In this document: positions 991 through 24,567 of the stretch, piece by piece
Numbering within the stretch: position 1 is the first letter of the stretch
Layout: the number at the start of each line of letters is the position of its first letter
NCBI RefSeq assembly: GCF_051016195.1
Contig: NZ_CP134616.1
Coordinates: 956,110-1,020,109 of the forward strand
Reading direction: 5' to 3'
DNA length: 64,000 nt
DNA from: Roseibium sp.
GTDB taxonomy: Bacteria; Pseudomonadota; Alphaproteobacteria; Rhizobiales; Stappiaceae
Notes under the pieces: generated by a model
Told to the model about the DNA's origin: nothing
The model's database searches: none
What the model saw: only the letters and a program-made list of their open reading frames with translations
Translations under genes and position numbers: made by a program

Positions 991-1617
991 ATGCAGGATA
1001 TTCCGATCAATGGCCTGACCGGCCTTTCCTATCTCCCGGGCTATTTCGACCGCACCGCCCAGGAAGCGCTGTGCGAAGAGATCCGCACGGCTGTCGCCGA
1101 AGCGCCGCTCTATCAGCCCGTGATGCCGAAGACCGGCAAACCGTTTTCGGTGAAGATGAGCAATTGCGGCCCGCTCGGCTGGGTGTCGGATATCGAGGGC
1201 TACCGTTATCAGCCCGATCATCCTGTGTCGGGACGTCCCTGGCCAGATATCCCTGTCCGGCTCAGGGCGCTCTGGCAGGACGTCGCCTCCGACGCTGCCG
1301 AGCCGGAGGCTTGCCTGATCAACTATTATGAGACAGGCGCGAAGATGGGCCTGCATCAGGACCGGGATGAAAAGACCTTCGATGCACCCGTTGTGTCGGT
1401 CTCGCTCGGCGACACGGCAACCTTCCGGGTCGGCGGCCTCAAGCGGAACGACCCGACAAAGTCCTTCCGCCTGCAATCCGGCGACGTCGTGGTTCTGGGC
1501 GGTGACGCCCGTCTGGCCTTTCACGGCATCGACAGGGTGCTCAAGGGAACATCCACACTGCTCAAGAATGGCGGGCGGATCAACCTGACACTGAGACGGG
1601 TGACACCGCCGGATTGA
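991..1617 (+). CDS. alkB: Alpha-ketoglutarate/Fe(II)-dependent dioxygenase AlkB
   Basis: CLINYY, MGLHQDRDE (HxD), FHGIDRV and RINLTLRR motifs; ATG 991 chosen inside ORF 892..1617. Confidence 0.9.
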   Translation: MQDIPINGLTGLSYLPGYFDRTAQEALCEEIRTAVAEAPLYQPVMPKTGKPFSVKMSNCGPLGWVSDIEGYRYQPDHPVSGRPWPDIPVRLRALWQDVASDAAEPEACLINYYETGAKMGLHQDRDEKTFDAPVVSVSLGDTATFRVGGLKRNDPTKSFRLQSGDVVVLGGDARLAFHGIDRVLKGTSTLLKNGGRINLTLRRVTPPD

Positions 1618-1655
1618 CGACGCGGTTCCGCCCGAAGTTGCTTGAGAGCGCCCTC

Positions 1656-3230
1656 TCAGATCGCAAGATAAGTCAGGACCAGCGCGCAGGCGGCAATGAC
1701 CCAGAGCGCGATCCGTCCGGACCGGGTATGCCGCGCCTCGGCGCGGCCGATGGCCTCGGCGGTCGCGGCATCGAACCTGAGCCCGTCCCGGGTCATGTGT
1801 TCCAGTGCCTCGGACATGTGCCCGATCCGGTCCGCAAAGATCGGCAGGTCGTTCGCGGCTCTTGTGAGCGCGGTGATCACGTCGCCCACATCGCGCAGCT
1901 TGCCGACCGGGCCCAGATTTTCCTTGATCCAGTTGCCGACGACCGGCTCGGCCGTGCGCCACATGTCGAGATTCGGATTGAGCGAGCGGGCGACCCCTTC
2001 GACCACGACCATGGTCTTCTGCAGCATGATCAGCTGGGTCTGGGTGCGCATTTCGAAGAGCTCGGTGACCTCGAACAGCTGCGTCAGCAGCCGCGCCATG
2101 GAAATCTCACTGGCGTCATGACCGTGAATGGGCTCGCCAATCGCCCGGATCGCCTGGGCGAACATGTCGACATCCTGATTGGACGGGACATAACCTGCCT
2201 CGAAGTGCACTTCCGCGACGCGCCTGTAGTCGCGGGTGATGAAGCCGAACAGGATCTCGGCCAGAAACCTGCGCTCCCGCTTGTTCAAGCGGCCGGTGAT
2301 GCCGAAATCGACGGCGACCAGCGTGCCGTCCTCCTGAACGAACAGGTTCCCCTGGTGCATGTCCGCATGAAAGAAGCCGTCGCGCAGCGTATGGCGCAGG
2401 AAACTCTGGATCACGGCAGCACCCAGCGCCTCCAGGTCGTGACCGTCCTCGATCAGGCCTTCGACGTCCGACATCTTGCGGCCATCGATCCATTCCATGG
2501 TCAGGACGCCCTTGGCGGTATGCAGCCATTCCACGGCGGGAACGCGAAAACCCGGATCCTCCGCCGTGTTTTCCGCCATTTCCGACAAGGCTGCCGCTTC
2601 CAGGCGGAAATCCATCTCGATGGCGACCGACTGGGCGAGCGTGTCGACAATGGCAACGGGACGCAAGCGGCGCGAGGGCGCATGGAACCGTTCGGCGAGA
2701 CGGGCAACCAGATAGTAGCTTTCCAGATCGCGCTGGAACCGGCGCGAAACGCCGGGCCGCAAGACCTTGACCGCGACCTTCTTCTCCGTGCCGTCGTCCC
2801 GGCGGATGATTGCCGGGTGTACCTGGGCGATGGAGGCGGCCGCGACCGCTTCGCCGAACTCGGCAAAGATCTCATCGACCGGACGCCCGAGCTGTTCGGC
2901 TACGGCCGCCCGGGCATCGTTATGATCGAAGGCCGGCAGCCGGTCCTGCAGTGCAGACAGCTCCCGCGCCGCGTCCTTGCCGACGACGTCTGCCCGGGTC
3001 GCGAGGAACTGCCCCAGCTTCACATAAGACGGACCCAGTTTGTTCAGAGCGTCCGACAGGCGAAGCTCGGCACTCTTGTCCTTGACGGCGCGCCGTTCAA
3101 GCAAACGTGCAAGCGCAATTCCGAGCCGCGGTCCGGGCGGCAGATCCGGCAGGGAGACCAGGCCGAACACACCCTCGCGCGCCATTACGAACCCGGCCCG
3201 CACGAGGCGGAAGAAAGGCATCACCGCCAT
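1656..3230 (-). CDS. ubiB: 2-polyprenylphenol 6-hydroxylase / ubiquinone biosynthesis kinase-like UbiB
   Basis: GPSYVKLGQFLATR, AAASIAQVH, VAVKVLRP, FFHADMHQGN, VDFG; directly downstream of ubiE. Confidence 0.95.
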   Translation of the reverse strand: MAVMPFFRLVRAGFVMAREGVFGLVSLPDLPPGPRLGIALARLLERRAVKDKSAELRLSDALNKLGPSYVKLGQFLATRADVVGKDAARELSALQDRLPAFDHNDARAAVAEQLGRPVDEIFAEFGEAVAAASIAQVHPAIIRRDDGTEKKVAVKVLRPGVSRRFQRDLESYYLVARLAERFHAPSRRLRPVAIVDTLAQSVAIEMDFRLEAAALSEMAENTAEDPGFRVPAVEWLHTAKGVLTMEWIDGRKMSDVEGLIEDGHDLEALGAAVIQSFLRHTLRDGFFHADMHQGNLFVQEDGTLVAVDFGITGRLNKRERRFLAEILFGFITRDYRRVAEVHFEAGYVPSNQDVDMFAQAIRAIGEPIHGHDASEISMARLLTQLFEVTELFEMRTQTQLIMLQKTMVVVEGVARSLNPNLDMWRTAEPVVGNWIKENLGPVGKLRDVGDVITALTRAANDLPIFADRIGHMSEALEHMTRDGLRFDAATAEAIGRAEARHTRSGRIALWVIAACALVLTYLAI

Positions 3231-3233
3231 AAG

Positions 3234-4037
3234 TCAGAATTTCCAGCCGTAATGCAGTGCCGCGATGCCGCCCGAGTAGTTCCGGAAACCGACCCGTTCG
3301 AAACCGGCATCGCGGATCATGTCCGCGAACCGTTCCTGGCTCGGGAATTTCCGGATCGACTCAACAAGGTACTGATAGGGATCGGCGTCGCCGGTCACCC
3401 ATCTGCCGATCGGCGGGATCGCGTTGAAGGAAAACGTGTCGTAAACCTTGTCGAGACCGGGCACGTCCACCTCGGAAAATTCAAGGCAGAGGAAACGCCC
3501 GCCGCGCTTCAGCACGCGGCGCGCGTCGCGCAACGCTTTGGGAATGTCCGGAACGTTGCGGATCCCGAACGCGATCGTGTAGGCGTCAAAGCTCTTGTCG
3601 GGAAAGGGCAGTTCCTCGGCGTTGCCCTGGGAGAAGGTGATCAGGTCCTCAAGACCCGCCTTCGCGGCCCGGTCGCGCCCGACGGACAGCATGGATTCGT
3701 TTATGTCGCAGACAACGGCGGTCACGGCCTCGTTCGACTTGCGCACGACACGGGTGGCGATGTCGCCGGTGCCGCCGGCCACGTCCAGCAGCCGCCACGC
3801 GGAGCGCGGTGCCTTCGGCGGCGCAAGGTAGGACACCATCGCGTCTTTCCAGACCCGGTGAAAACCGCCGGACATCAGGTCGTTCATCAGGTCGTAGCGT
3901 TCCGCGACCTTGTGAAAGACATCGTCGACCAACAGCTGCTTCCGCCCCTCTGCGACCTTGGAAAAACCGAAACTGGTCGGCATGTCCTCCGGCGCCCGGC
4001 CGGAGTTTCCCGCTTTGCCCTGAGCCTGTTGCGTCAT
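3234..4037 (-). CDS. ubiE: Ubiquinone/menaquinone C-methyltransferase UbiE
   Basis: [32 protein letters not shown]. Confidence 0.95.
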
Positions 4038-4198
4038 GTTTGCGCCTCCTGGCGGATGCTGTCTTAAATTTGCTTCAAATCGCGCCGGACAATAGTACAA
4101 GCACCTCACAAGCGCTATCTTTCGCGGCCACGAAAAGCCATTTGCCGCAGGGCTATAGCGCGCAACAGACGCAGACACCAGTGGGGAGACATTCGCAA

Positions 4199-5092
4199 AT
4201 GCCCGAATTGCCGGAAGTCGAAACGGTCAAACGGGGTCTGGCACCCACGTTGGAAGGCGCGCAGATCCTGTCCGTCGACCAGAATCGGCCGGACCTCAGG
4301 TTCGCGTTTCCGGACGGGTTCGTGTCCCGTCTCGCCGGGCAGAACGTTTCCGCGTTGTCCCGGCGCTCAAAGTATCTGCTTGCCGATATCGACAGCGGCG
4401 ATGTCCTGGTCATGCACCTTGGAATGTCGGGCTCGTTCCGGATCGAGAATGATGTTTTGAACGAAACACCCGGATCCTTTGAACACCCGCGCAACAAGGA
4501 TCCCAAGCATGATCATGTGATCTTTCATCTTCAGACCTCCGACCGAACGCGCGCACGCATCATCTATAACGACCCGCGCCGCTTCGGTTTCATGGACCTT
4601 ATCCCGCGCCAGAGGATTGCCGATCATCCGCTCTTCCGGGACCTCGGTCTCGAACCGCTTGGCAATGATCTGAGCGGCGATGCGCTGGCAAGGCTGTTCA
4701 GGGACCGGAAAACACCGCTGAAGGCTGCCCTTCTCAATCAGAAGCTGATCGCGGGTCTTGGCAACATATATGTATGTGAGGCGCTGTGGCGCAGTGGTCT
4801 CAGTCCGCTCCGGCCCGCCGGATCCCTCGTCACGAAAACCGGCAGGGCCACCAAGAAGGCAAATCTTCTTGCAGCCAACATCCGGGAAACGCTGCATGAC
4901 GCCATCAGGGCAGGCGGATCTTCCTTGCGCGATCATGCCCAGACCGACGGGACGCTCGGGTATTTTCAGCACTCCTTTGCCGTTTACGGCCGCGAGGGCG
5001 AGCCCTGCCGGACGAACGGGTGCAAAGGTACCGTCGCCCGCGTCGTCCAGTCCAACCGTTCGACCTTCTTTTGTCCGTCCTGCCAGACCTGA
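4199..5092 (+). CDS. mutM: Formamidopyrimidine-DNA glycosylase
   Basis: N-terminal [28 protein letters not shown]-terminal Zn finger C..C...[10 protein letters not shown]. Confidence 0.97.
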
Positions 5093-6156: not shown

Positions 6157-6423
6157 ATGGCCAACACACCATCGGCCAAGAAGGCGGCCCGTAAGATTGC
6201 CCGCCAGACGGCCACGAACAAAGCCCGCCGCAGCCGCGTGCGCACCTATCTGCGCCAGGTTGAAGAAGCCATCGCTTCCGGTGACCAGGCTGCAGCAAGC
6301 GAAGCCTTCAAGGCAGCCCAGCCCGAAATCATGCGCGCCGCTTCCAAGGGCGTCATGCACGCCAATACGGCGTCCCGGAAGGTTTCCCGGCTCAATGCGC
6401 GGATCAAGGCTCTCAGCGCTTGA
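6157..6423 (+). CDS. rpsT: 30S ribosomal protein S20
   Basis: [13 protein letters not shown]...[11 protein letters not shown]...[16 protein letters not shown]. Confidence 0.98.
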
Positions 6424-6445
6424 ATCGCAACGTCATCAGACCGTT

Positions 6446-6478
6446 AAAAAGACCCGGCATCACTGCCGGGTTTTTTTT
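6446..6478 (+). terminator. Intrinsic (possibly bidirectional) terminator after rpsT
   Basis: AAAAAGA-CCCGGCA-TCAC-TGCCGGG-TTTTTTTT. Confidence 0.85.
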
Positions 6479-6491
6479 AGCCGTGTAATTT

Positions 6492-6636
6492 TGTGGATGA
6501 CAATCTTTTGCATTTTTCGTGTTGCCTATCGTAAATTTTACCAGCCAACATGCTGACACAGAAATTTGTTTTTAATCAATATCTTACACACATGTAGGAA
6601 TCAGAAAACTCAATCGAACCGGATTCGATACGAGTC
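6492..6636. promoter_or_regulatory. AT-rich region upstream of rhodanese/dnaA with a DnaA-box-like site, an IHF site and a GANTC cluster
   Basis: TGTGGATGA 6492-6500 (1 mismatch to the DnaA box); AATCAA-TATC-TTA 6574-6586 (IHF consensus WATCAAN4TTR); GANTC at 6598, 6622, 6632. Confidence 0.5.
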
Positions 6637-7069
6637 AATAGATCCTGTTTGAATTTTTTTTTGAAATGGCCGTTTTTAAATTGTGACAGTGTGCCCGAGA
6701 GCAAAAAGTTATTGCCGCCAAAAGCATTTGCTCCCTCGCCCACAACGGACAAAAAAACTTTGACGTTGGGGCAAAAACAAGGCTTTTCCGGAAATCGTCA
6801 AAAGTGGCTGTTGCCCCCTCTAAATCCGTCTGTATATTAGGGGCACGGCTGGCGACGAAGACCAGCACACAACGTAAAAACGGTGCTTGGAACAAACATG
6901 AATAAGTCTAAACGATGTATAGCTGAGCACGCGGTCTCCAAATCGTGGGTTGGATACATACTTGTATTCAATGCACAGGGTTCTTAGTTCATTCCCGAAC
7001 TAAATCTCCACTTCAAAATAAACGGCAATACTTTGAACTGATAGTCTTGCGCTATCTGAGGGGGCAATC

Positions 7070-7510
7070 GTGCAAAGCGTGGGTGGATACGCGGGTGATA
7101 TAACCTCGCGAGAGGCATTTGATGCGCTCGCCGAGCGGGCTGATGCGGTGCTCGTGGACGTGCGCACTCAGGCCGAGTGGTCCTTCGTCGGCGTGCCGGA
7201 TCTGCGCCCGCTCGGCAAGGAAGCAGTACTCGTTGAATGGCAGAGCTTTCCCTCTTCCGGCCCGAATCCAGAGTTTGCAAATGCAGTCTCGAGCCATGTC
7301 TCGAAAAAAGGGCTTGACCTGGACGCTCCAATCTATTTCTTGTGCCGCTCCGGTGCCCGGAGCCAGGCGGCAGCAACAGTCCTGACTCAGGCCGGGCACA
7401 CGCAGTGTTTCAACATATCAGACGGGTTCGAGGGGCCGCTGGACGCAGATCGTCATCGCGGCACACAGTCCGGGTGGAAGGCCGCCGGACTGCCCTGGAT
7501 TCAGAGTTAG
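7070..7510 (+). CDS. Single-domain rhodanese-like protein
   Basis: LVDVRT..EW, active-site loop CRSGARS, GWKAAGLPW; GTG start after a GAGGGG RBS. Confidence 0.9.
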   Translation: MQSVGGYAGDITSREAFDALAERADAVLVDVRTQAEWSFVGVPDLRPLGKEAVLVEWQSFPSSGPNPEFANAVSSHVSKKGLDLDAPIYFLCRSGARSQAAATVLTQAGHTQCFNISDGFEGPLDADRHRGTQSGWKAAGLPWIQS

Positions 7511-7663
7511 TTTCCCTTCGAAATGACAGGGAGCGGCGGCAGGCATAAAACTGCCGCCAACGATATAACCGTCCCAAAAGGGACAAAATAGCGCTGCAAA
7601 AGCAGCAAGGCGTCGAAGATCGGCTGTGGCGGACCGGTCTTCAGGAAACAGGAGGCAAATGAT

Positions 7664-9139
7664 ATGCAGGTTCAGGAGGCAGGTGGCTCCGAACATTGGA
7701 AGCGGGTCAAAAAACAACTTCGCGCCGAATTGGGCGATGATGTTTTTACCAGCTGGTTTGCGCGCGTAGACCTCGAGGAACACCAGGACGGCACGGTGCG
7801 GCTGTCTGTTCCGACCCGATTCCTAAAGCAATGGATTCAGAACAATTACAATGACCAGTTGATGGGTCTGTGGCAGCGCGAATGCGACAACGTTCATCGC
7901 ATCGAGCTGACTGTGCGCGGCGCGATCCGCCCCAGGCAGACTCCGGTCGCGCAACCCGGCCTGGCGGCTCCCAGCGGCGTCAAACCCATCAGCGCCGATG
8001 GCCGGGCAGACGCGCTCGCGGATGCTTCCCAGGTAACGCGCGCCCAGGCGGCGACGGCCGCTCTCGGACGTGGAGACACCAACACGGACAGCGCACGCGA
8101 TGTGCTGCAGGGTGCCGCGCTTGAACCGAAATACACGTTTGAAACCTTCGTTGAAGGCGAGTCGAACAATCTGGCTTTGGCTGCGGCACGTCAGGTTGCC
8201 GCCGGTGGTGCCGTTACCTTCAATCCTCTCTACCTTCACGCTGCAGTCGGACTTGGCAAAACCCACCTGATGCAGGCGGTCGCTGCGAAGGCGCGGGCAA
8301 ACGGACACAAGGTGCTCTACCTCACCGCCGAGCACTTCATGTACAAGTTCGTGGCGGCGCTGAAATCACAATCCGCACTGGCCTTCAAGGACACGCTGCG
8401 GACGATCGATCTGCTGCTCATCGACGACATGCAATTCCTGCATGGGAAGCAGGTTCAGCAGGAGTTCTGTCATACGTTGAACGCGCTTATCGACGGCGCA
8501 CGCCAGGTGATCGTGGCTGCCGACCGCGCGCCTTCCGAACTTGACACCCTCGATGACCGTGTGCGTTCGCGCCTGTCCGGCGGTCTCGTCGTCGGCATTC
8601 AGGAGCCGGATTTCACGCTTCGCCGCAACATCCTGCTTTCCCGCGTCGAAACGGCGCAAAAGTCCTACCCGCAATTCGCGGTGCCTGAGAGCGTATTGGA
8701 CTATGTCGCGCGCCACGTTGCGTCTTCCGGAAGGGATCTTGAGGGCGCACTCAACCGCCTGATCGCGCACAACCAGCTGACCAATCAGCCGATTACGCAG
8801 GAAATGGCCGAGATGACCCTGCGCGACCTGGTACGCTCCAGTGAACCGCGTCGCGTCAAGATCGAGGACATCCAGCGTGTCGTTTCCAAGCACTACAACG
8901 TCACCAAGGCGGATCTCCTGTCCGCCCGCCGGACACGCACGATCGTGCGTCCAAGGCAGATCGCAATGTATCTTGCGAAAGTGATGACCCCGCGCTCGCT
9001 TCCCGAAATCGGGCGCCGGTTCGGCAACAGGGACCACACGACGGTGCTTCACGCGGTGCGCAAGATCGAGGAACTGGCGCGTGCGGATTATGCGCTTGCC
9101 CAGGAGCTCGAGCTGCTGAAACGCATGCTGGACGCCTGA
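7664..9139 (+). CDS. dnaA: Chromosomal replication initiator DnaA
   Basis: Walker [15 protein letters not shown], domain [11 protein letters not shown]...[19 protein letters not shown]. Confidence 0.98.
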
Positions 9140-9307
9140 CCGCGGCAAGGCACGATTTTCAATCGAAATTGGGGGCGTTCCGCACGGACGCCCCCTTGCT
9201 TTTGACCGCGGTTAAGGGCAGTGTCTTCCCCCGCTCCCGATAGGAGCCCAAATGTCCAGATTGGTCGGGACGCTATTCCCGACACCTCACGAGCACGGAA
9301 GAAGCGT

Positions 9308-10426
9308 ATGAAAGCGACCCTCGAGCGGACCGATCTCCTCAAGTCCCTGACGCACGTTCACCGGGTGGTCGAGCGGCGTAACACCATTCCCATCCTGTCC
9401 AACGTTCTCTTGCGCGCCGACGGAAACACGATCAACCTCAAGGCCACCGACCTGGACCTTGAAATCGTCGAATCCGTGCCGGCCATGGTTGAATTGCCCG
9501 GTGCGACGACCGTTCCTGCGCACATGTTTTACGACATCGTGCGCAAGCTGCCGGAAGGATCGCAGGTTGTCCTGGAAACCACCGGAGACAACGCCACGCT
9601 CGAGATCCGGGCGGGCCGTTCGAAATTCACTCTGCAGATGCTGCCGGAGACCGACTTCCCGGATCTGACAGCCGGCGACTTCAGCCACGGCTTCTCTCTC
9701 GGGGCCGCCGATATCCGCAAGTTGATCGACACCACGCAATTTGCGATCTCGACCGAGGAGACCCGGTACTATCTCAACGGGATCTACCTGCACACCGTGG
9801 ACGCCGCCAACGGTCAGCAGTTCCGCGCCGTGGCAACCGACGGGCACCGGCTGGCCCAGGCAGAGGTGATCGCACCGCAAGGCGCGTCCGGCATGCCCGG
9901 CATTATCGTTCCAAGGAAAACGGTTGGCGAGATCCAGAAACTGCTGGAGGACCCCGAAGCGAATGTTCAGATCGAACTTTCGGAAACCAAGATCCGGATC
10001 ACCACCGGGTCCATCGTGCTTACATCCAAGCTGATCGATGGCACGTTTCCCGATTATGGGCGGGTCATCCCGCAAAACAACGACAAGGAGATGCGGGTCG
10101 ACAGGGACGAATTCAAGGAAGCCGTCGATCGTGTCTCGACGATTTCCTCAGAGCGCGGACGCGCGGTCAAACTGTCGCTCGACGAAGGCCGGATGGTCCT
10201 CACGGTCAACAACCCGGACTCGGGCAGCGCGACAGAGGAAGTGGCGGTTGAATATGATGCAGAGCCGCTCGAAATCGGCTTCAATTCCCGCTATCTGCTC
10301 GACATCGCAAATCAGCTTGGCAGCGACACCGCCCTGTTTCGCCTTGCCGATTCCGGGTCGCCGACGCTGATTCAGGACAACACGGTCGAAGACTGCCTGT
10401 TCGTCCTCATGCCCATGCGCGTCTGA
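9308..10426 (+). CDS. dnaN: DNA polymerase III beta sliding clamp
   Basis: RRNTIPILSNVLL, ISTEETRYYLNG, VATDGHRLA, C-terminal LMPMRV. Confidence 0.98.
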   Translation: MKATLERTDLLKSLTHVHRVVERRNTIPILSNVLLRADGNTINLKATDLDLEIVESVPAMVELPGATTVPAHMFYDIVRKLPEGSQVVLETTGDNATLEIRAGRSKFTLQMLPETDFPDLTAGDFSHGFSLGAADIRKLIDTTQFAISTEETRYYLNGIYLHTVDAANGQQFRAVATDGHRLAQAEVIAPQGASGMPGIIVPRKTVGEIQKLLEDPEANVQIELSETKIRITTGSIVLTSKLIDGTFPDYGRVIPQNNDKEMRVDRDEFKEAVDRVSTISSERGRAVKLSLDEGRMVLTVNNPDSGSATEEVAVEYDAEPLEIGFNSRYLLDIANQLGSDTALFRLADSGSPTLIQDNTVEDCLFVLMPMRV

Positions 10427-10462
10427 CCTCGGGTCGGCGGGCGCTGAAGCGGAAGCAGGCCG

Positions 10463-11611
10463 ATGAGCGAATTCAGGACGGCGAGAGTGACACGCCTGTC
10501 CCTGACCGAGTTCCGCAACCACGAACGACTGTCGTTTCCCGTCGCCTCCAGCATGGTTGCGCTTGTCGGGGCCAACGGTGCCGGGAAAACCAACGTTCTG
10601 GAGGCAATTTCCTTTCTCACGGCAGGGCGCGGCCTGCGTCGCGCAACACTCGCCGACATAGCCCGAAGCCCGGGTCCCGGCAGTTGGAGCGTTGCCGCAA
10701 CGGTTGAACTCGACGGGCTGGAAACGAAGCTCGGGACGGGGCTTGTGGAAGGCGCGAGCGGACGCAAGGTCCGCATCGACGGCGAGGATGTGCGCGGTTC
10801 GGAAACGCTGCTGGACTACGTGCGCGTGCTCTGGCTGGTTCCGGCGATGGATGGTCTTTTCACCGGCCCCGGCTCGGACCGGCGCAGATTTCTCGACCGG
10901 CTGACGCTGTCGGTCGATCCTGGCCACGGCCGCCGCGTCGGCAACTTTGAAACCGCCCTGCGCCAGCGCAACAAGCTGCTGGAACAGGGAGGAACGGACA
11001 CCTTCCTCTCGGCCCTGGAACAGCAGGTTGCGGAACTTGGAACAGCCGTCTCCATCGCCCGCCGGGAAACGGTCGATCTGCTTGCGCAGACGGTTGCCGA
11101 CCAGGAAACGCAGAGCCAGCCGTTTCCGCATGCATCGCTGGAACTGGAGGGGGCGTTTGAACGCGACACCGCCGGCATGAATGCCGCCGACCGGGAAGAA
11201 CATTACCGTGTCTTGCTTGCGAACGGCCGGGGACGGGACCGCGCGGCGGGCCGCACGCTCAACGGTCCGCATCTCAGTGACCTCAAGGTTCGCCACGCCG
11301 CCAAGGATATGCCAGCAGCACTCGCTTCGACCGGTGAGCAGAAGGCCCTGCTGATCGGACTGATCCTCGCCCATTGTGAACTCACCGCCAAGGTCAGCGG
11401 GATGACACCCATTCTGCTCCTGGACGAGGTCGCCGCGCATCTCGATCCGGACCGGCGGGCAGCCCTCTTTTCCAAGCTCGTCATGCTTGGGGGGCAGGTC
11501 TTCATGACCGGCACGGACCAGGCGCTTTTCGAGGCGCTGCCGACGGAGGCCCAGGTCCTTGAAATCGGCAGCGGAGAAGCACGGTCGATCACACCTGCGC
11601 CAACCTCATAA
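10463..11611 (+). CDS. recF: DNA replication/repair protein RecF
   Basis: G.NGAGKTNVLEAIS, RRRFLDR, GPHLSDL, STGEQK, LLLDEVAAHLD. Confidence 0.97.
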   Translation: MSEFRTARVTRLSLTEFRNHERLSFPVASSMVALVGANGAGKTNVLEAISFLTAGRGLRRATLADIARSPGPGSWSVAATVELDGLETKLGTGLVEGASGRKVRIDGEDVRGSETLLDYVRVLWLVPAMDGLFTGPGSDRRRFLDRLTLSVDPGHGRRVGNFETALRQRNKLLEQGGTDTFLSALEQQVAELGTAVSIARRETVDLLAQTVADQETQSQPFPHASLELEGAFERDTAGMNAADREEHYRVLLANGRGRDRAAGRTLNGPHLSDLKVRHAAKDMPAALASTGEQKALLIGLILAHCELTAKVSGMTPILLLDEVAAHLDPDRRAALFSKLVMLGGQVFMTGTDQALFEALPTEAQVLEIGSGEARSITPAPTS

Positions 11612-19090: not shown

Positions 19091-19636
19091 ATGAAGTCCG
19101 TTGTCAGGATAGCGCTTGCGGCCCTCGGCCTCGGTGTGCTTGCCGTGCCGGCGCAATCAACCGGAAACCTGGTTGAAGTCCAGTTGGCCGACAGGTTGGA
19201 CGACGCGCGCGGTTACTGCCTGGACATAGCCGGCGGGCGCGGCAAGAATGCACCGCTGGACAAGGGTTTGCAGGCTCATACCTGCTACAATTACACGGGC
19301 GGAATCCTGGAAGATCAGGGCTTTGACGAAGCGCTCATCGTCAAGGGAGAGTTCCGAATTCCATATTTCGACATCTGTATGGCGGTGCCCTCCGTTGAAG
19401 CTGGAGCACCGATCTTACTCGGCTCATGTTCCGGCACAGACACACAGAAATTCACCCTGAAAGACAATGGACAACTGGTCACCCAGGCTGACCCGAAGCT
19501 TTGCGTAACAGTCAACAGTACGGAAAAACGGGAAGGACGCGGTGGCTCTCCCATCCATGTGATGCGTCCATTGTCCCTCCAGCCCTGTGACGACGCCAAC
19601 AAAAGCTACCAGACCTGGTCTCTGTTCCGATTGTAG
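19091..19636 (+). CDS. Secreted ricin-type beta-trefoil lectin-domain protein
   Basis: Signal peptide; repeated Cys units GYCLDI / ICMAV / LCVTV; Q-x-F/W motifs (TQKF, YQTW); AGGAG RBS. Confidence 0.75.
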   Translation: MKSVVRIALAALGLGVLAVPAQSTGNLVEVQLADRLDDARGYCLDIAGGRGKNAPLDKGLQAHTCYNYTGGILEDQGFDEALIVKGEFRIPYFDICMAVPSVEAGAPILLGSCSGTDTQKFTLKDNGQLVTQADPKLCVTVNSTEKREGRGGSPIHVMRPLSLQPCDDANKSYQTWSLFRL

Positions 19637-19718
19637 GTGTATTCGATGAACAGCAGTCTGTCCGGTTAGATGAACGAAAGGACGGTCTCGCTTGCAGACC
19701 GAAGGAGGCGTGTCCGCA

Positions 19719-19768
19719 AAACGTTTCGTGCTTGCCCACATCCTCATGTCGGGAAGCACGAAACGTTT
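19719..19768. other. Long intergenic hairpin
   Basis: AAACGTTTCGTGCTT / AAGCACGAAACGTTT perfect 15-bp inverted repeat with inner stem CCCACAT / ATGTCGGG. Confidence 0.6.
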
Positions 19769-20127
19769 CGCAGCGCGCAAAAATTCGCAAAACGTTGGAC
19801 CAGAATCCATCTGCGTTCAAAAGTGACAATAACTTAGGCGGAAAAACAATCTGTCTGAGTTGTTGGAATTTAGGCCCTACATCGCACCAAAACGGATTTC
19901 CGGATTTCCAATCGATCCGGAAATTCAGACTTCCACCATTGCCCATCATTCGCTGAGCAAGCGCCATGTCGGCCCGAAGCGGACCTTCGCGATTTGAACG
20001 CAACGGACGCTCCGGGCTGACAATGTCGCCGCAGCTGGCACTCTACAAACCGCGACGAACATCGTGCACCCGACGGCGCATCACCAGCTTCCTGCGGCGT
20101 CTTGAAGCGCCGCCCGGCGCGCGCTGC

Positions 20128-21126
20128 TTATGCAACTTCCAGGATCATGGACCGCAGCGTATCCTCACTAACGCTGCCCGGCGCGCCAATCGCCACCAAC
20201 CGGCTTTCCGGTTGTCGCGCGCCCCAAGCCTCGTCCCGGGCGATGTCGACCCGTTTGCCCACGACCTGGACAATTATGCGATGATCAGGATCCTCTTCAC
20301 TGAAGACAAATCCCTTCATCCGGTAAACACTGCCCGGCAATTGTTTGACGGCGCTTTTGAGGGCTGACAATCGCAGCGGTCTATCCGATCGTACCATAGT
20401 CGTTGCAAACTGCGCCGCGTGTGAGTGTTCCTCGATGTCCTCGTGTTGGTGCTCAGGACATCCGCACCCCGGTCCATGCACATGGTGATCTGCATCTTTG
20501 AGCTGGCTCTCCGCGAACCGTCCGACCGACAGAAGAATATCGAGCGGGACTTGCGCGTTGACCGCTTCCACGAGCCGGTAGCGTTTGAAGCGCGAACCGA
20601 GCCACTTATGAACTTCGGCCACCGTTTCACTTTTGACCAGGTCGACCTTGTTCAGGATGACCATGTCCGAGAATGCAATCTGGCGGAGCTTCAGTTCCAT
20701 CTGTTCCGGAGCAGCAAAAATCTGTTCCGCGTCGACCAGGCAGACGATGCTGTCCAGGCGGATCAGGTTGCGGAACTTCTGATCTGTGAATGTCATTGCG
20801 ATCGAGGACGGGTCCGAGACGCCGCTGGCCTCTAGGATGATGTATTCCGGTCTCTCGTCTCGCGCCAAAACCTGTTCGACAGTTTCGATCAGATCATCCC
20901 TGATGGAGCAGCAGACGCACCCGTTGGCAAGGCTCATGACATCGTCCTCGATGCCGACGACAAGGTCGGCATCGATGTTTATGGACCCGAAATCATTCAC
21001 CAGAACGGCAACGCGCAATCCATGCTGTCCGGTCAGGATCCGGTTGAGCAAGGTCGTCTTTCCCGACCCCAGGAAGCCGGTCAGGATTGTTACCGGCACA
21101 GCAGATTTTTCTCCAAACTCGATCAT
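20128..21126 (-). CDS. CobW/COG0523-family GTPase metallochaperone
   Basis: GFLGSGKTT, NGCVCC (CxCC), EASG, NKVD, His-rich insert HHVHGPGCGCPEHQH, C-terminal YRMKG. Confidence 0.92.
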   Translation of the reverse strand: MIEFGEKSAVPVTILTGFLGSGKTTLLNRILTGQHGLRVAVLVNDFGSINIDADLVVGIEDDVMSLANGCVCCSIRDDLIETVEQVLARDERPEYIILEASGVSDPSSIAMTFTDQKFRNLIRLDSIVCLVDAEQIFAAPEQMELKLRQIAFSDMVILNKVDLVKSETVAEVHKWLGSRFKRYRLVEAVNAQVPLDILLSVGRFAESQLKDADHHVHGPGCGCPEHQHEDIEEHSHAAQFATTMVRSDRPLRLSALKSAVKQLPGSVYRMKGFVFSEEDPDHRIIVQVVGKRVDIARDEAWGARQPESRLVAIGAPGSVSEDTLRSMILEVA

Positions 21127-21130
21127 GGTC

Positions 21131-22600
21131 CTACTCCGGTTTCTTCCGGTTGGGGATCACGTCATCGACACTGATTGAGAAACCAGACGGCCATTGGGTC
21201 CCGGGCTCACGGAAAACATCTGCCGGATAGTATTCCTTGGGATCGATCTCCATGTCCCGGTACTTCTGATCCTGTTGCTCGGCCCGAGAAGAGCGCGGTT
21301 CCGGCAATACGACCTCGTCGGGTAGTGTTAAACGACCTGCCTCTTCAGCCGCGGCAAGCTCGCGGAATGGCGGAACCGTCCCAGACTTTCCAGGAAGAGT
21401 CGCTTTCCGGTACCAGATTGCCTCCTTGGTAACATTGACGACCGCGACATCTAGCCCCCATTGAAACAAGCCATCATAGTGGGCGCGGATGCCGGCCAGC
21501 ATTTCTGCATCAATGTCTTCATCCTGGGTATAGTGCGTCACCATTCCCAATCGAGGACGTGTGTCGGCAAACAGTTTTCCGACTGCATAATGGGACGTAT
21601 GGTGCGTATCAATCGTATAGTTGAAGAGTTCCTGCGGCAGACCATACTTGTAGGTCATCAGCTGGCCGATGTCCTGGCCGGACATCTCTGTAACAAACAC
21701 ATCGACACCTTCGCCGTACTTGCGTGAAAGCTCGTCCGGGCGGCCGTCGCCGGTCCAAACGAAACTCAGGCCATTCCAGTCGAGGCGGTAACCGACGGCA
21801 CCATCCTTGGCGTGGCTGCGCGGCCAACTCCGAATGACAACGCCGTCCTGATCATAAACAATGCCGCCCTCCTCGCGATAGTCGAACTCATTGACCTCGA
21901 TTTCATATCCGTCGCCAATCGGAAACACATCGAAGGCTTCGAGGTGCCATTTCATCATCTGCTGCATGCCGTTAACCATGCCCTGGGTGCCAAGTTCGGG
22001 CGTGCGGCCGGAGGGTCCATGGATACGCAATGGCGTATAGCCACCGGACCAGGCGCGAAAGGGATAGATGTAAGGAATGTCGGCGTAGTGGTCGACATGA
22101 AGGTGCGTAATGAAAATGTCGTTAATCAGCTGGCCGGGAACCTGCATGCCAATAATGTTGCGTACGCATCCGGAGCCAAAGTCGAAAAAGAACCTCTTGC
22201 CATTTCCAAGCTCGACCATGATGCATGTTCCGGCTTGGTCTTCTCTCGGCGGGTAGGGCGTGGATCCGCAAAAGGATATGCGCATTTCGTCCGGGCCGAG
22301 TTCTTCGGACAAGGGAAAGTAATTGGCATTGGAGCCAGTCATGTATTTTGTCGGTCGGAAGTACTCGGGTAGCGAAATGCCGCCTGCCGGGCGGCCACCA
22401 TAGGGGTTTTTGAGAGCCTCCCCCAGAGGTCCGTCGCCCGAGTGAGCCTGCGCGCCCTGAGAGGCGACCGTTGCCGCGCCGGTTACCGCCGCTCCGGTTG
22501 CCATCCCTTTCAGGACGCTGCGCCTGTTCGGATTTTCAACCCGGTCCTCTTCCGTCGCATTGTCGGTTTTGCGGTCGTCGTCGTTGGTGTGATCACTCAT
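21131..22600 (-). CDS. Tat-exported MBL-fold metallohydrolase (RNase Z/arylsulfatase-like)
   Basis: Twin-arginine signal NRRSVLKG...AQA; DFGSG, THLHVDH (HxHxDH), SHAKDG, WTGDG, THHT, VTHY. Confidence 0.85.
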   Translation of the reverse strand: MSDHTNDDDRKTDNATEEDRVENPNRRSVLKGMATGAAVTGAATVASQGAQAHSGDGPLGEALKNPYGGRPAGGISLPEYFRPTKYMTGSNANYFPLSEELGPDEMRISFCGSTPYPPREDQAGTCIMVELGNGKRFFFDFGSGCVRNIIGMQVPGQLINDIFITHLHVDHYADIPYIYPFRAWSGGYTPLRIHGPSGRTPELGTQGMVNGMQQMMKWHLEAFDVFPIGDGYEIEVNEFDYREEGGIVYDQDGVVIRSWPRSHAKDGAVGYRLDWNGLSFVWTGDGRPDELSRKYGEGVDVFVTEMSGQDIGQLMTYKYGLPQELFNYTIDTHHTSHYAVGKLFADTRPRLGMVTHYTQDEDIDAEMLAGIRAHYDGLFQWGLDVAVVNVTKEAIWYRKATLPGKSGTVPPFRELAAAEEAGRLTLPDEVVLPEPRSSRAEQQDQKYRDMEIDPKEYYPADVFREPGTQWPSGFSISVDDVIPNRKKPE

Positions 22601-22836
22601 TGCGTGAACCTTTCCTCCGGTCTCTGGGGCCGTGAAACCCGGCGGACGATCTCCGCGCGCAGTTCCACAAGTATTTCGTTGATTTGAGAGACTTCCGTGC
22701 TGTCGATGGCGCCACGGGCAAGCCGCGCGCACAGGCATTCGTAGTCTTTACAAGCCTCCTTCAGGTGCACATCTGACTGAAGGCGCTTTTTTATCGCTAT
22801 CGCCTGTTCAGGCAGGTCTCGTTGGACGAACTTCAT
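22597..22836 (-). CDS. Small (79 aa) helical hypothetical protein
   Basis: MKFVQRDLPEQ...KEACKDYECLC...LRAEI; its stop overlaps the MBL start codon (ATGA). Confidence 0.6.
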   Translation of the reverse strand: MKFVQRDLPEQAIAIKKRLQSDVHLKEACKDYECLCARLARGAIDSTEVSQINEILVELRAEIVRRVSRPQRPEERFTQ

Positions 22837-22940
22837 TGACGATGTGCTCCGTTGCGCTACGCTGATGGGCAACACGCTGAGTAGAATTCGGCCTCGGCTC
22901 CAGGCCAAGTGACTCACCGTGAAACGTGGGTGAGACGGCA

Positions 22941-24335
22941 ATGCCAGCGAAGGGCAAAAGCACACGATCTGAGCAATCGGTCGATTGCGAACCGAAGGCT
23001 GTTCGCGATGCGCTCCAAGCAGTCATCTCAAGTGAAGAGCTCGCGTCCTCGCCGCGTCTGAAACAGATCTTGAGCTACATCGTCGAAGAGCGGTTGGCCG
23101 GACGGGGCGACCAGATCAAGGGCAAAACCATTGCAGCCGATGTCTATGGCCGTGTGCTCGACGGACGCAATGCGTCGGACAACATTGTGCGCGTGGAAGC
23201 GCGCCGCTTGAGACGCGTTTTGGATCAGTTCTACGAAGGCAGCGGCCGGGACGAGAACATCCGTATCCACGTTGATGCGGGAACCTATGTTCCCCGGTTC
23301 GAACTGCGCGAGGATACCTACGCTGCCGCCAACGACGGAAAGGAAGCCACGCCCGTTGCTGCGAACACAACCTCCGGGTTTGTGCGTTCCGCACCCCCAT
23401 GGAGATTTGCAACAGTCGCGGGTGTTGTCGTTGCGCTGATCGCAAGCGGCGTCTTGCTGTTCCAGCAGGATACGATTCCGTCGGTTGCGGATCCGCAAGC
23501 CGCCGTGCGCTCCGCCTTGATGGAAAAGTCCCCGGTATCGGTCCAGTCGATGAATCTGGCGGAGCAGGCACGCGGCCTGCTTTTTCCTGTGTTCGACGCG
23601 GAGCGCCAACGTCTCGCGATAAGTCTCTTTGACCGCGCAATCGCGCTAGACCCGAGTTTGCCCGATGGATATGCCGGCAAGGCCCAGGCCCTTGCCACAC
23701 TGGCCTTCCTTGCCAAAGACGATATGCAGAGCACCGACCTGATGCAGCAGGCAGCCTCCCTGGCATCCAAGGCCAGGGAACTCGGACCGACCAGCGCGCG
23801 TGCACACGGAGCAACGGCATGGATCGCGAGCATGTCCGGTGGAAGCGATATAGCCCGCAAACATGCGAACATTGCCGTGGGTCTGATGCCCGATGATGGG
23901 TATATTCTCGATATAGACGGGGTCGTTGCGATACTGGCAGGAGACGGAGCCCGGGCCGCAAAAGCATCCGATCCGGAGCGCTTACGTCTTGGAAAAGGGC
24001 GCTTTGGCGCACCGAACATCTGGGGTGTGGCGAATTACATGTTGGGAAACTACGGGACAGTGATTGACGCCTTCGAGACTGCTCCGGCAGCCGGGGCACC
24101 AGTCTCAGCACCCTCGCTCATTTTCCTCGCCGCAGCTCATGACCATCTTGGCAACACAAGAGCCGCGGCCAACGCCGTACGTGACTTGCGCACAACCTGG
24201 CCGGATTTTCCGGTTCCGTTCGTTCTCGACAAGATGTTTGCCCTAGAGGAATATGCGTCCGACATTTACTCCAGGCTGGAAAAAAACGGCTACAAACGCG
24301 CCCATGTCGGCGTCGCGGATGACGGCAAGTCATAG
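22941..24335 (+). CDS. Membrane-anchored TPR-containing putative regulator/sensor
   Basis: N-terminal SPRLKQILSYIVEE...IAADVYGR...IVRVEARRLR..L..FY...GTYVPRF domain (as in alphaproteobacterial adenylate-cyclase-like/TolB-N proteins); one TM helix; TPR-like helical repeats. Confidence 0.75.
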   Translation: MPAKGKSTRSEQSVDCEPKAVRDALQAVISSEELASSPRLKQILSYIVEERLAGRGDQIKGKTIAADVYGRVLDGRNASDNIVRVEARRLRRVLDQFYEGSGRDENIRIHVDAGTYVPRFELREDTYAAANDGKEATPVAANTTSGFVRSAPPWRFATVAGVVVALIASGVLLFQQDTIPSVADPQAAVRSALMEKSPVSVQSMNLAEQARGLLFPVFDAERQRLAISLFDRAIALDPSLPDGYAGKAQALATLAFLAKDDMQSTDLMQQAASLASKARELGPTSARAHGATAWIASMSGGSDIARKHANIAVGLMPDDGYILDIDGVVAILAGDGARAAKASDPERLRLGKGRFGAPNIWGVANYMLGNYGTVIDAFETAPAAGAPVSAPSLIFLAAAHDHLGNTRAAANAVRDLRTTWPDFPVPFVLDKMFALEEYASDIYSRLEKNGYKRAHVGVADDGKS

Positions 24336-24567
24336 TCGTTCTTGAACAGTCAACACGTTCGGTCTGTGACCCGTTGCTCCGTGTGACTGGAATGCAGTCA
24401 CGCAATGCATTCGCTGCGGTCAGTATTTTTGTGCGCAAAGCCAACGTTCGGCAGCACCGCACCAAACGTCCGCTTCCCGCCCAAACTGTAGATTCAGCAC
24501 AATGCTTAGCTCGCCGTTGGGGCGCTCCTGGTATTGGGACTGTGACAAACGCCTCAGGGCCGGTCGT

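Follow-up and report, generated by a model that had tools for sequence, protein, structure and literature searches.

What joins four adjacent genes of a Roseibium chromosome that encode a metallo-β-lactamase (MBL)-fold hydrolase with a twin-arginine translocation (Tat) signal, a GTPase of the COG0523 (CobW) family, a protein of 79 amino acids (aa), and a membrane protein with tetratricopeptide repeat (TPR)-like sequence? The genes lie in a 64,000-nucleotide (nt) stretch of the 6.5-Mb chromosome (positions 956110 to 1020109), here called the window, and a reading of the sequence alone had taken them for a one-component transmembrane signaling unit, with the small protein as its partner, that controls an exported hydrolase with a metallochaperone of its own. 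Comparative sequence tests supported this interpretation part by part. The explanation that we consider somewhat better than an even bet as a whole is a cassette of two layers: a core of MBL hydrolase and GTPase, and an alphaproteobacterial control layer that would consist of the membrane protein, its small partner, and an operator between their genes.

The comparison was based on 80 loci with relatives of the MBL hydrolase, taken from species-representative genomes and spanning Alphaproteobacteria, other Proteobacteria, Acidobacteriota, Verrucomicrobiota, Planctomycetota, Bacteroidota, Myxococcota, Chloroflexota, Actinomycetota, and Methanosarcina. The four-gene arrangement is far beyond chance: a CobW homologue (48 to 98% identical) lies directly downstream of the MBL gene in 79 of the 80 loci, across more than 10 phyla and usually after a gap of 3 to 25 nt, and the genes of the membrane protein and the small protein take the same positions as in the window in 24. 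The features of the locus, with open reading frame abbreviated as ORF, are as follows.

20128 to 21126, minus strand: 332-aa G3E GTPase of the CobW/COG0523 family, which probably serves the MBL hydrolase as its dedicated metallochaperone
21131 to 22600, minus strand: Tat-signal MBL-fold hydrolase, 489 aa when the longest ORF is read from its Met47
22465 to 22600, minus strand: N-terminal export region of the MBL hydrolase, read from the translation (about 26 charged residues, RRSVLKG, hydrophobic stretch, AQA)
22597 to 22836, minus strand: first gene of the operon, for a small soluble protein of 79 aa with three predicted helices
22880 to 22908, minus strand: putative operon promoter, read by eye (-35-like TTGGCC at 22908 to 22903, -10-like TCTACT at 22885 to 22880)
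22909 to 22934, minus strand: three direct repeats, proposed operator, from an intergenic alignment of seven genera
22941 to 24335 (ORF from GTG 22926), plus strand: candidate membrane-anchored one-component regulator, 464 aa from ATG 22941
22998 to 23300, plus strand: cytoplasmic N-terminal domain (N-domain) of the regulator, winged-helix-like, residues 25 to 125 of the 469-aa ORF
23400 to 23462, plus strand: single transmembrane helix of the regulator, residues 159 to 179
23463 to 24335, plus strand: predicted periplasmic TPR-like sensor domain of the regulator, from sub-threshold TPR matches

On the minus strand, the small ORF, the MBL gene, and cobW follow one another, and the regulator gene is divergent from this trio. 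The ATG of the MBL gene (22600 to 22598) overlaps the TGA of the small ORF (22599 to 22597) in an ATGA, with GGAGGA 8 to 10 nt 5' of that ATG; the MBL stop codon ends at 21131 and the ATG of cobW begins at 21126, with 4 nt between them. The four ORFs, the overlap, the spacing, and the divergence are all as the sequence-only reading had described them, and only the start of the regulator was revised: ATG 22941 (Met6, 464 aa) is more likely than GTG 22926 (469 aa), because the GTG lies inside the conserved repeats and 464 aa is also the length of a 96%-identical homologue.

The MBL hydrolase and its probable metallochaperone

The GTPase matches the Pfam families cobW (PF02492, E value of 2.4e-52) and CobW_C (PF07683, 1.4e-14) and holds a P-loop (GFLGSGKTT), the motifs NGCVCC and NKVD, and a His/Cys-rich linker, DADHHVHGPGCGCPEHQHEDIEEHSH, which is kept in most of the GTPases that accompany an MBL hydrolase. 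Its scores stay under the equivalog cut-offs both of TIGR02475, the model of true CobW (199.9 versus 332.1), and of NF038288, the model of ZigA (167.2 versus 600). By sequence, it falls into a separate COG0523 subgroup that is neither a true CobW nor a ZigA equivalog. The genome encodes 12 G3E paralogues, of which the GTPase of the window is one, and this number fits a client-specific role.

Besides the constant gene order, the degrees of identity run in parallel, CobW identity tracking MBL identity at 98/99, 77/85, and 55/57%. We regard it as very probable that the MBL hydrolase and the GTPase form a near-obligate functional pair of enzyme and chaperone, as was claimed when the hydrolase was first said to have its own metallochaperone. 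The core of MBL and cobW genes is widespread and ancient, of a known kind, but an undescribed instance of it. The pairing fits the general chaperone model for COG0523 proteins (PMC11672702); Nha3, for example, clusters exclusively with its client, the Fe-type nitrile hydratase (PMC2770081). In common with such client pairs (Nha3/Fe-type nitrile hydratase, ZNG1/METAP1, ZagA/FolE), the GTPase of the window has an N(G/S)C-phi-CC metal site and a tie to one metalloenzyme; it differs from them in that its client is a putatively Tat-exported MBL hydrolase, so that loading would have to precede export. Tat substrates fold and load their metal before they are exported, and because of this logic a cytoplasmic GTPase would be able to act on the signal-bearing hydrolase only before export. 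Given that few COG0523 GTPases have a known client, the near-obligate link offers a tractable pair in which to study metal handover and the timing of Tat export.

Family, metal site, and export signal of the MBL hydrolase

The hydrolase matches the NCBIfam model NF041257 ("guanitoxin biosynthesis MBL fold metallo-hydrolase GntH") at 552.4 bits, with a cut-off of 333, over model positions 1 to 374 of 374, and a genome-wide check found it to be the only gene of this type. Among proteins in the PDB, it matches PNGM-1 (6J4N), a di-zinc enzyme of metagenomic origin, at an E value of 2e-61 over residues 93 to 416 (324 residues), and RNase Z and an MBL-fold arylsulfatase (8GYG, E value of 1e-8) are distant MBL relatives only. 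At E values up to 1e-20, there are 1,948 homologues, with 55 to 65% identity between phyla. The HxHxDH site noticed at the outset, H166-L-H-V-D-H171, proved to be invariant in an alignment of 16 homologues from several phyla, in which the full set of invariant metal ligands is H166, H168, D170, H171, H263, D285, and H356; the site aligns with HLHTDH of PNGM-1. These sequence features place the hydrolase in the PNGM-1/NF041257 subfamily, with a predicted RNase Z-like fold and a binuclear metal site.

With PNGM-1, it shares the HxHxDH di-metal site and membership in the fold family of RNase Z-like, dimer-type proteins (PMC6882493). The hydrolase of the window differs, however, by its Tat signal, by a conserved C-terminal extension of about 70 residues past the aligned part, and by membership in a distinct and far more conserved subfamily (55 to 65% identity across phyla); paralogues in its relatives are 35 to 40% identical to it, and the E value to PNGM-1 is comparable. 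The PNGM-1 paper does not mention CobW (PMC6882493). More distant MBL paralogues (34 to 40% identity) were seen in four Roseibium genomes (G004, G012, G020, and G021), which hold 2 to 5 further copies each, often in tandem within 2 kb.

The twin-arginine signal, NRRSVLKGMATGAAVTGAATVASQGAQA, has the order N-R-R-S-V-L-K-G, then MATGAAVTGAATVA, then AQA, which compares with an S/T-R-R-x-F-L-K-type motif, a hydrophobic stretch, and AxA. The match to the TAT region model TIGR02811 is weak (E value of 9.7e-5), and a twin-arginine (RR) motif precedes the conserved NPYGG in about 60 of the 80 homologues, in line with the proposed export of the hydrolase. In members from Chloroflexota, Actinomycetota, and Methanosarcina, the signal peptide or the RR motif is missing. 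As a separate observation, the charged region of 20 to 30 residues before the RR motif (window positions 22520 to 22600) is alike across phyla in the MBL hydrolases of loci L019 to L098, with a pattern such as M-x-N/T-D/E-D/E-N-x-K...D-L-S/N-RR-D/E-M/L-LKG. A conserved region in this place is unusual, and CobW or a Tat-related factor may recognize it.

Close homologues of the hydrolase bear the name GntH in NCBI records. For the Roseibium protein, we consider this name probably an over-annotation, because we found no paper with a role for GntH, the review of the pathway omits it, and the neighborhoods do not have the look of a toxin pathway. The literature searched contained neither a demonstrated role for GntH nor a paper linking it with guanitoxin, and the review of the reconstituted nine-enzyme guanitoxin pathway names GntA to GntG, GntI, and GntJ and never mentions GntH (PMC10673588). 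No gnt-pathway gene was recognizable among the flanking ORFs of the window or the recurrent neighbors in the 80 loci, a search that did not extend to the rest of the genome. Although the hydrolase matches the GntH model in full length, its family is found in Roseibium, Rhizobium, Acidobacteriota, Chloroflexota, Planctomycetota, and Methanosarcina, where the conserved neighbor is CobW and not a set of toxin genes. Among MBL-fold proteins that have yet to be assigned a substrate, it ranks with the most conserved, and its public toxin-pathway name is probably misleading.

A divergently encoded membrane protein and its candidate operator

The regulator has a single strong hydrophobic segment, residues 159 to 179 (Kyte-Doolittle 19-residue maximum of 2.49), with Arg residues before it and acidic and polar residues after it, which fits an N-in orientation. 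A single-pass protein with the N terminus inside and a periplasmic sensor is thus predicted, as in ToxR/CadC-like proteins. Of the original description, the one transmembrane helix stood without change, whereas the TPR-like repeats stayed just under the Pfam cut-offs in this protein (TPR_14, 22.8 versus 23.5; TPR_17, 20 versus 24.4; also TPR_2). TPR families are on record for many of its homologues, and its C-terminal half gave weak PDB matches to the TPR region of OGT. There are about 130 homologues, most of which belong to Ruegeria, Roseibium, and further marine Alphaproteobacteria and bear no annotation beyond "TPR protein" or "hypothetical." In the comparative set, the regulator (44 to 91% identity) occurs in 24 marine alphaproteobacterial loci, always divergent from and directly upstream of the operon; the MBL hydrolases of these loci are at least 82% identical to that of the window.

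The best-conserved part of the regulator is its N-domain, with invariant residues that include V83-R84, an R89-L90-R91-R92 block, and a G-x-Y-x-P hairpin. An AlphaFold2 (AF2) model of this domain, at a predicted local distance difference test (pLDDT) score of 79, has four helices followed by a beta-hairpin. A profile alignment by hhalign against 20 Trans_reg_C domains (PF00486, OmpR-type) of the same genome put helix 1, helix 2, a "VxVxxxRLRRxL" recognition helix, and the G-x-Y hairpin or wing in register, with a P value of 0.002 and a probability of 13%. A single paralogue of the N-domain exists in the genome, a 291-aa protein (C1, approximately 7914 to 8789) that lacks a sensor domain and has only a membrane anchor at its C terminus; its gene adjoins that of a sigma-54-type response regulator and is divergent from that of an EAL-domain-like membrane protein, and no homologue of the small protein was found near it.

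Between the regulator gene and the operon, three direct repeats with a period of 11 and 10 bp, CTCAC (22934 to 22930), N6, TTCAC (22923 to 22919), N5, and GTCAC (22913 to 22909), form the only well-conserved part of the intergenic alignment of seven genera, the remainder of which cannot be aligned. Ruegeria has a set of three CTCAC in their place, Tropicimonas has four CTTAC with a period of exactly 10 bp, and rhizobial loci have similar YTAC repeats, so that the repeat sequence (CTCAC, CTTAC, or YTAC) varies along with the lineage of the regulator. We propose the repeats as the candidate operator of the membrane regulator. Direct repeats with a 10- to 11-bp period are the typical target of the PhoB/OmpR/ToxR class of domains. 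The -35-like TTGGCC abuts the last repeat and is followed by a 17-nt spacer, the -10-like TCTACT (TCATCT in Ruegeria), GGAG, and the ATG of the small ORF; Roseibium, Ruegeria, Tepidamorphus, and Bauldia all have TTGG at this point, right behind the repeats. To judge from this layout, the repeats and TTGGCC look like an activator site next to a weak -35 element.

The profile alignment of the N-domain and the direct repeats are most economically explained if the TPR protein is a one-component regulator of the ToxR/CadC type with a divergent winged helix, and we hold this to be fairly likely. What had been claimed as a one-component transmembrane regulator was supported by the conserved divergence, the repeats, and the winged-helix alignment, but it found no backing from Pfam or from a significant Foldseek match. 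With ToxR, CadC, and TcpP, the system would share the order and topology of its domains, short direct repeats one helical turn apart by the -35 element, and a small accessory protein encoded nearby. In contrast to these proteins, its N-domain is not recognized by Pfam Trans_reg_C and is without the N-terminal beta-sheet of OmpR domains, its predicted sensor is a TPR domain, and its partner is predicted to be soluble, helical, and cytoplasmic, whereas ToxS, TcpH, and LysP reside in the membrane or the periplasm.

A small protein that accompanies the regulator

Homologues of the small ORF lie in the same position in the 24 marine loci, as detected by a hidden Markov model (HMM) built from DNA frames (E values of 1e-26 to 1e-33). 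Beyond the 24 regulator loci, this HMM gave only two weak matches, both in Pararhizobium, and three rhizobial loci also hold homologues. The neighborhood comparison thus revealed a conserved small ORF, always in company with the regulator: all 27 loci that have a regulator gene have the small gene too, and none of the other 53 does. In Phyllobacterium (locus L087), the order of regulator, small gene, MBL, and cobW is as in the window. In Pararhizobium (locus L095), an 87-aa homologue is encoded divergently from a 639-aa regulator that has the same N-domain and a FlgO-like domain before its TPRs; here, the small gene heads an operon for a membrane protein and a sulfatase about 3 kb from the MBL gene, and DUF2092, MBL, and cobW come after the regulator gene. 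Both the co-occurrence and the arrangement in Pararhizobium indicate that the small gene follows the regulator and not the enzyme, as expected if the small protein is the partner that it was first taken for.

Comparison of 11 Ruegeria loci gave 25/25/55 variable sites by codon position, and the ratio of synonymous to nonsynonymous differences was 650/943 in frame versus 182/1445 and 269/1318 in the other frames. On this substitution pattern, the small ORF is a real coding sequence. The AF2 model (pLDDT of 87) shows three helices (residues 9 to 19, 23 to 41, and 46 to 68), and the protein has no hydrophobic segment. No match to it was found by sequence in Pfam, NCBIfam, or the PDB, and a Foldseek search of the PDB returned nothing significant (best E value of 1.0; generic helical hairpins). 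A zinc-binding motif of the anti-sigma type, H-x3-C-x2-C, was considered and rejected, the Cys and His residues of Roseibium not being conserved in other genera.

Searches among called proteins yielded 2 relatives with a word-based method and 5 with full HMMER, and the conservation of the ORF emerged only from the DNA upstream of MBL homologues. The gene starts with GTG in Ruegeria and with TTG in Tropicimonas and Aliiruegeria (ORF at approximately 7733 to 7990 in loci L022 to L043, L036, L040, and L047); gene callers may miss it for this reason, which may explain why databases hold few relatives. The role that we favor for the small protein, with slightly less than an even chance, is to bind the N-domain as its partner in the cytoplasm and so to feed back on its own induction.

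The cassette as a unit and its modular control

Only 2 of 37 sampled Roseibium genomes have this MBL hydrolase. When the window was compared by blastn with two other Roseibium genomes, positions 20127 to 24348 alone aligned (with 6238 to 10474 of loci L019 and L020, at 92% identity); nothing else was alike within 8 kb on either side, and the flanks are unrelated. Similarity that is confined to the four genes indicates that the cassette moves together, which supports its functional unity. Elsewhere in Roseibium, it lies between genes for an EF-hand protein or TRAP transporter and a DUF6065 gene, near leuS. An empty insertion site was sought within the genus and none could be shown, because the two genes that flank the cassette in the window are megabases apart in the nearest cassette-bearing genome (G012). 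At the ends of the cassette, no integrase, transposase, other mobility genes, or terminal repeats were seen.

Within the cassette, conservation is graded: between Roseibium and Ruegeria, members of different orders, the MBL hydrolase is 85% identical, the regulator 47%, and the small protein 25 to 30%. To the core of MBL and cobW genes, Alphaproteobacteria have added the regulator and the small ORF, which are present in 27 of the 80 loci. Other regulators stand beside this core in other loci, namely, AraC-type regulators in 12, mostly from Acidobacteriota, NarL-type response regulators in 13, histidine kinases in 9, and MalT/LuxR-type regulators in 8, from Chloroflexota and Actinomycetota. Interchangeable regulators are a pattern typical of substrate-induced scavenging enzymes.

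A formylglycine-type sulfatase gene (PF00884) is found within 8 kb in 21 of the 80 loci, from many phyla, and DUF2092 and DUF3604 recur near the core in 6 loci each. The sulfatase neighbors are a hint that a sulfate ester or a similar ester is the substrate of the MBL hydrolase. MBL-fold sulfatases themselves (PDB 8GYG, labeled "arylsulfatase," and the class III alkylsulfatases) show weak homology to the hydrolase (E value of 1e-8), although this likeness is no closer than that to RNase Z and no sulfatase gene lies beside the cassette of the window. In three rhizobial loci (L095, at 1573 to 4578 and 6651 to 7454; L087; and L077), the core is part of a larger cluster with a Tat-signal sulfatase, a 160-aa membrane protein, DUF2092, a nearby DUF3604, and a 597- to 639-aa relative of the regulator with a FlgO-like domain.

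Proposed mechanism and alternatives

How might the parts work together? In the mechanism that we propose, the COG0523 GTPase would load the metal of the MBL hydrolase, most likely zinc, in the cytoplasm, and the folded, metal-loaded enzyme would then be exported to the periplasm via Tat. The periplasmic TPR domain of the regulator would sense a signal, one helix would span the membrane, and the winged-helix-like domain in the cytoplasm would bind the three CTCAC-type repeats. With the repeats abutting the -35 element, such binding could activate transcription of the small gene, the MBL gene, and cobW. The 79-aa protein would act on the cytoplasmic domain of the regulator as a feedback partner, either as an anti-activator or as a co-activator. 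Our best guess for the substrate is an extracytoplasmic sulfate ester or phosphodiester that the cell scavenges. Of all this, the sequences themselves establish the order and conservation of the genes, their motifs and co-occurrence, and the coding signature of the small ORF, with folds as predicted; the transfer of metal, the export, the DNA binding, the direction of regulation, the part played by the small protein, and the substrate are inferred. As a principle, such a control layer of regulator, small partner, and operator is known, and what is new is the detail: it adds two families that lie outside the domain libraries, the N-domain and the small partner, and a candidate operator that can be tested. 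It is tempting to speculate further that regulator and 79-aa protein are an undescribed two-protein signaling unit, with a new winged-helix family and a self-induced soluble partner, dedicated to the first COG0523 GTPase that metalates a Tat-exported MBL hydrolase acting on a widespread environmental ester; this fuller version we offer tentatively, and we think it rather unlikely to hold in its entirety.

Several observations weigh against the proposed mechanism. On the side of the core, the literature searched contained no client relation between a COG0523 protein and an MBL-fold enzyme, nor any paper that names COG0523 alongside RNase Z, and we infer both the identity of the metal and its transfer from GTPase to hydrolase. 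Given the members without a signal in Chloroflexota, Actinomycetota, and Methanosarcina, action in the periplasm is not intrinsic to the MBL family. Nor does the hydrolase need the control layer, since its closest relative outside Roseibium (Rhodovibrionaceae, 93%) and that of Ruegeria sediminis are encoded without regulator and small gene. As for the regulator, the N-domain has no match in Pfam even at E values up to 10 and none by sequence in NCBIfam or the PDB, its Foldseek search of the PDB gave no significant match (best E value of 0.6, the weak hits being winged-helix proteins), and the hhalign probability is just 13%. A scan for consensus promoters and terminators found nothing useful in the intergenic region and left the weak hexamers unflagged. 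The start codon of the regulator is 7 nt from the repeats, and binding there might instead turn the regulator gene down or have another effect altogether. Genome-wide, the pattern TCAC-N6-7-TCAC-N6-7-TCAC occurs at 7 sites, about the number expected by chance, with no sign of a wider regulon; the only argument for a function of the repeats is their conservation.

With these points in mind, the TPR protein might be no transcription factor at all and instead serve as a periplasmic scaffold, anchor, or folding helper, or as a sensor that works via another protein, in which case the repeats would belong to another regulator or to the promoter. The lack of a recognized DNA-binding family for the N-domain, the usual role of TPR domains in protein-protein contacts, and the sensorless, membrane-anchored form of the N-domain paralogue would all suit such a role. 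However, no other part of the protein is as well conserved as the N-domain, which can be aligned in register with helix 1, helix 2, the recognition helix, and the wing of OmpR-type domains, the repeats shift in sequence along with the lineage of the regulator and have the spacing typical of this domain class, and ordinary transcription factors occupy the same place in other lineages; we therefore consider a nontranscriptional role unlikely. A different division of labor would make the small protein an escort in the maturation or export of the hydrolase, as a proofreading chaperone of the Tat signal peptide or an adaptor between CobW and MBL hydrolase that holds the precursor until it is metal loaded. 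The ATGA overlap implies roughly equal production of the two proteins, the small protein is small, soluble, and helical as such an escort might be, and the unusually long charged region before the RR motif, conserved across phyla, is a possible binding site. Against an escort stands the absence of the small gene from the 53 loci without regulator, many of which encode Tat-signal hydrolases with the same charged region, as well as the Pararhizobium locus, where the gene lies away from MBL yet beside the regulator; moreover, sequence and Foldseek searches of the PDB revealed no resemblance to any known Tat chaperone. This makes an escort improbable, and we prefer a partner of the regulator.

The functions under which relatives of the hydrolase are known, those of a β-lactamase or tRNase Z like PNGM-1 or of GntH in the guanitoxin pathway, are very improbable here, notwithstanding the E value of 2e-61 to PNGM-1 and a score over the GntH equivalog cut-off. 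PNGM-1 hydrolyzes β-lactams and cleaves pre-tRNA in vitro, but its β-lactamase kcat of about 1e-3 per second is 3 to 4 orders of magnitude under those of true B3 enzymes, and its authors regard the activity as promiscuous (PMC6882493); the activities measured for it are low and unlikely to be physiological. An enzyme of the periplasm, moreover, cannot have the processing of tRNA as its function. Across the more than 10 phyla in which the family is found, CobW is the sole constant neighbor, no toxin-pathway enzyme was recognizable among the annotated recurrent neighbors or the scanned flanking ORFs of the window, and the guanitoxin review describes nine enzymes without GntH (PMC10673588).

Neighboring genes

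In the window, the cassette has no adjacent sulfatase gene; its neighbors encode a ricin-type lectin, a MarR protein, a GMC oxidoreductase, a PuuE-like deacetylase, and a TRAP transporter. The lectin (19091 to 19636) is a secreted 181-aa protein with a ricin-type beta-trefoil (PF00652, E value of 8.7e-10); its gene is convergent with cobW and does not belong to the cassette in other genomes. Between the two convergent genes, at 19716 to 19771, there is a 26-nt inverted repeat (88% complementary, 4-nt loop) which, without a T-run and unflagged in the terminator scan, may still serve as a terminator shared by the lectin gene and cobW.

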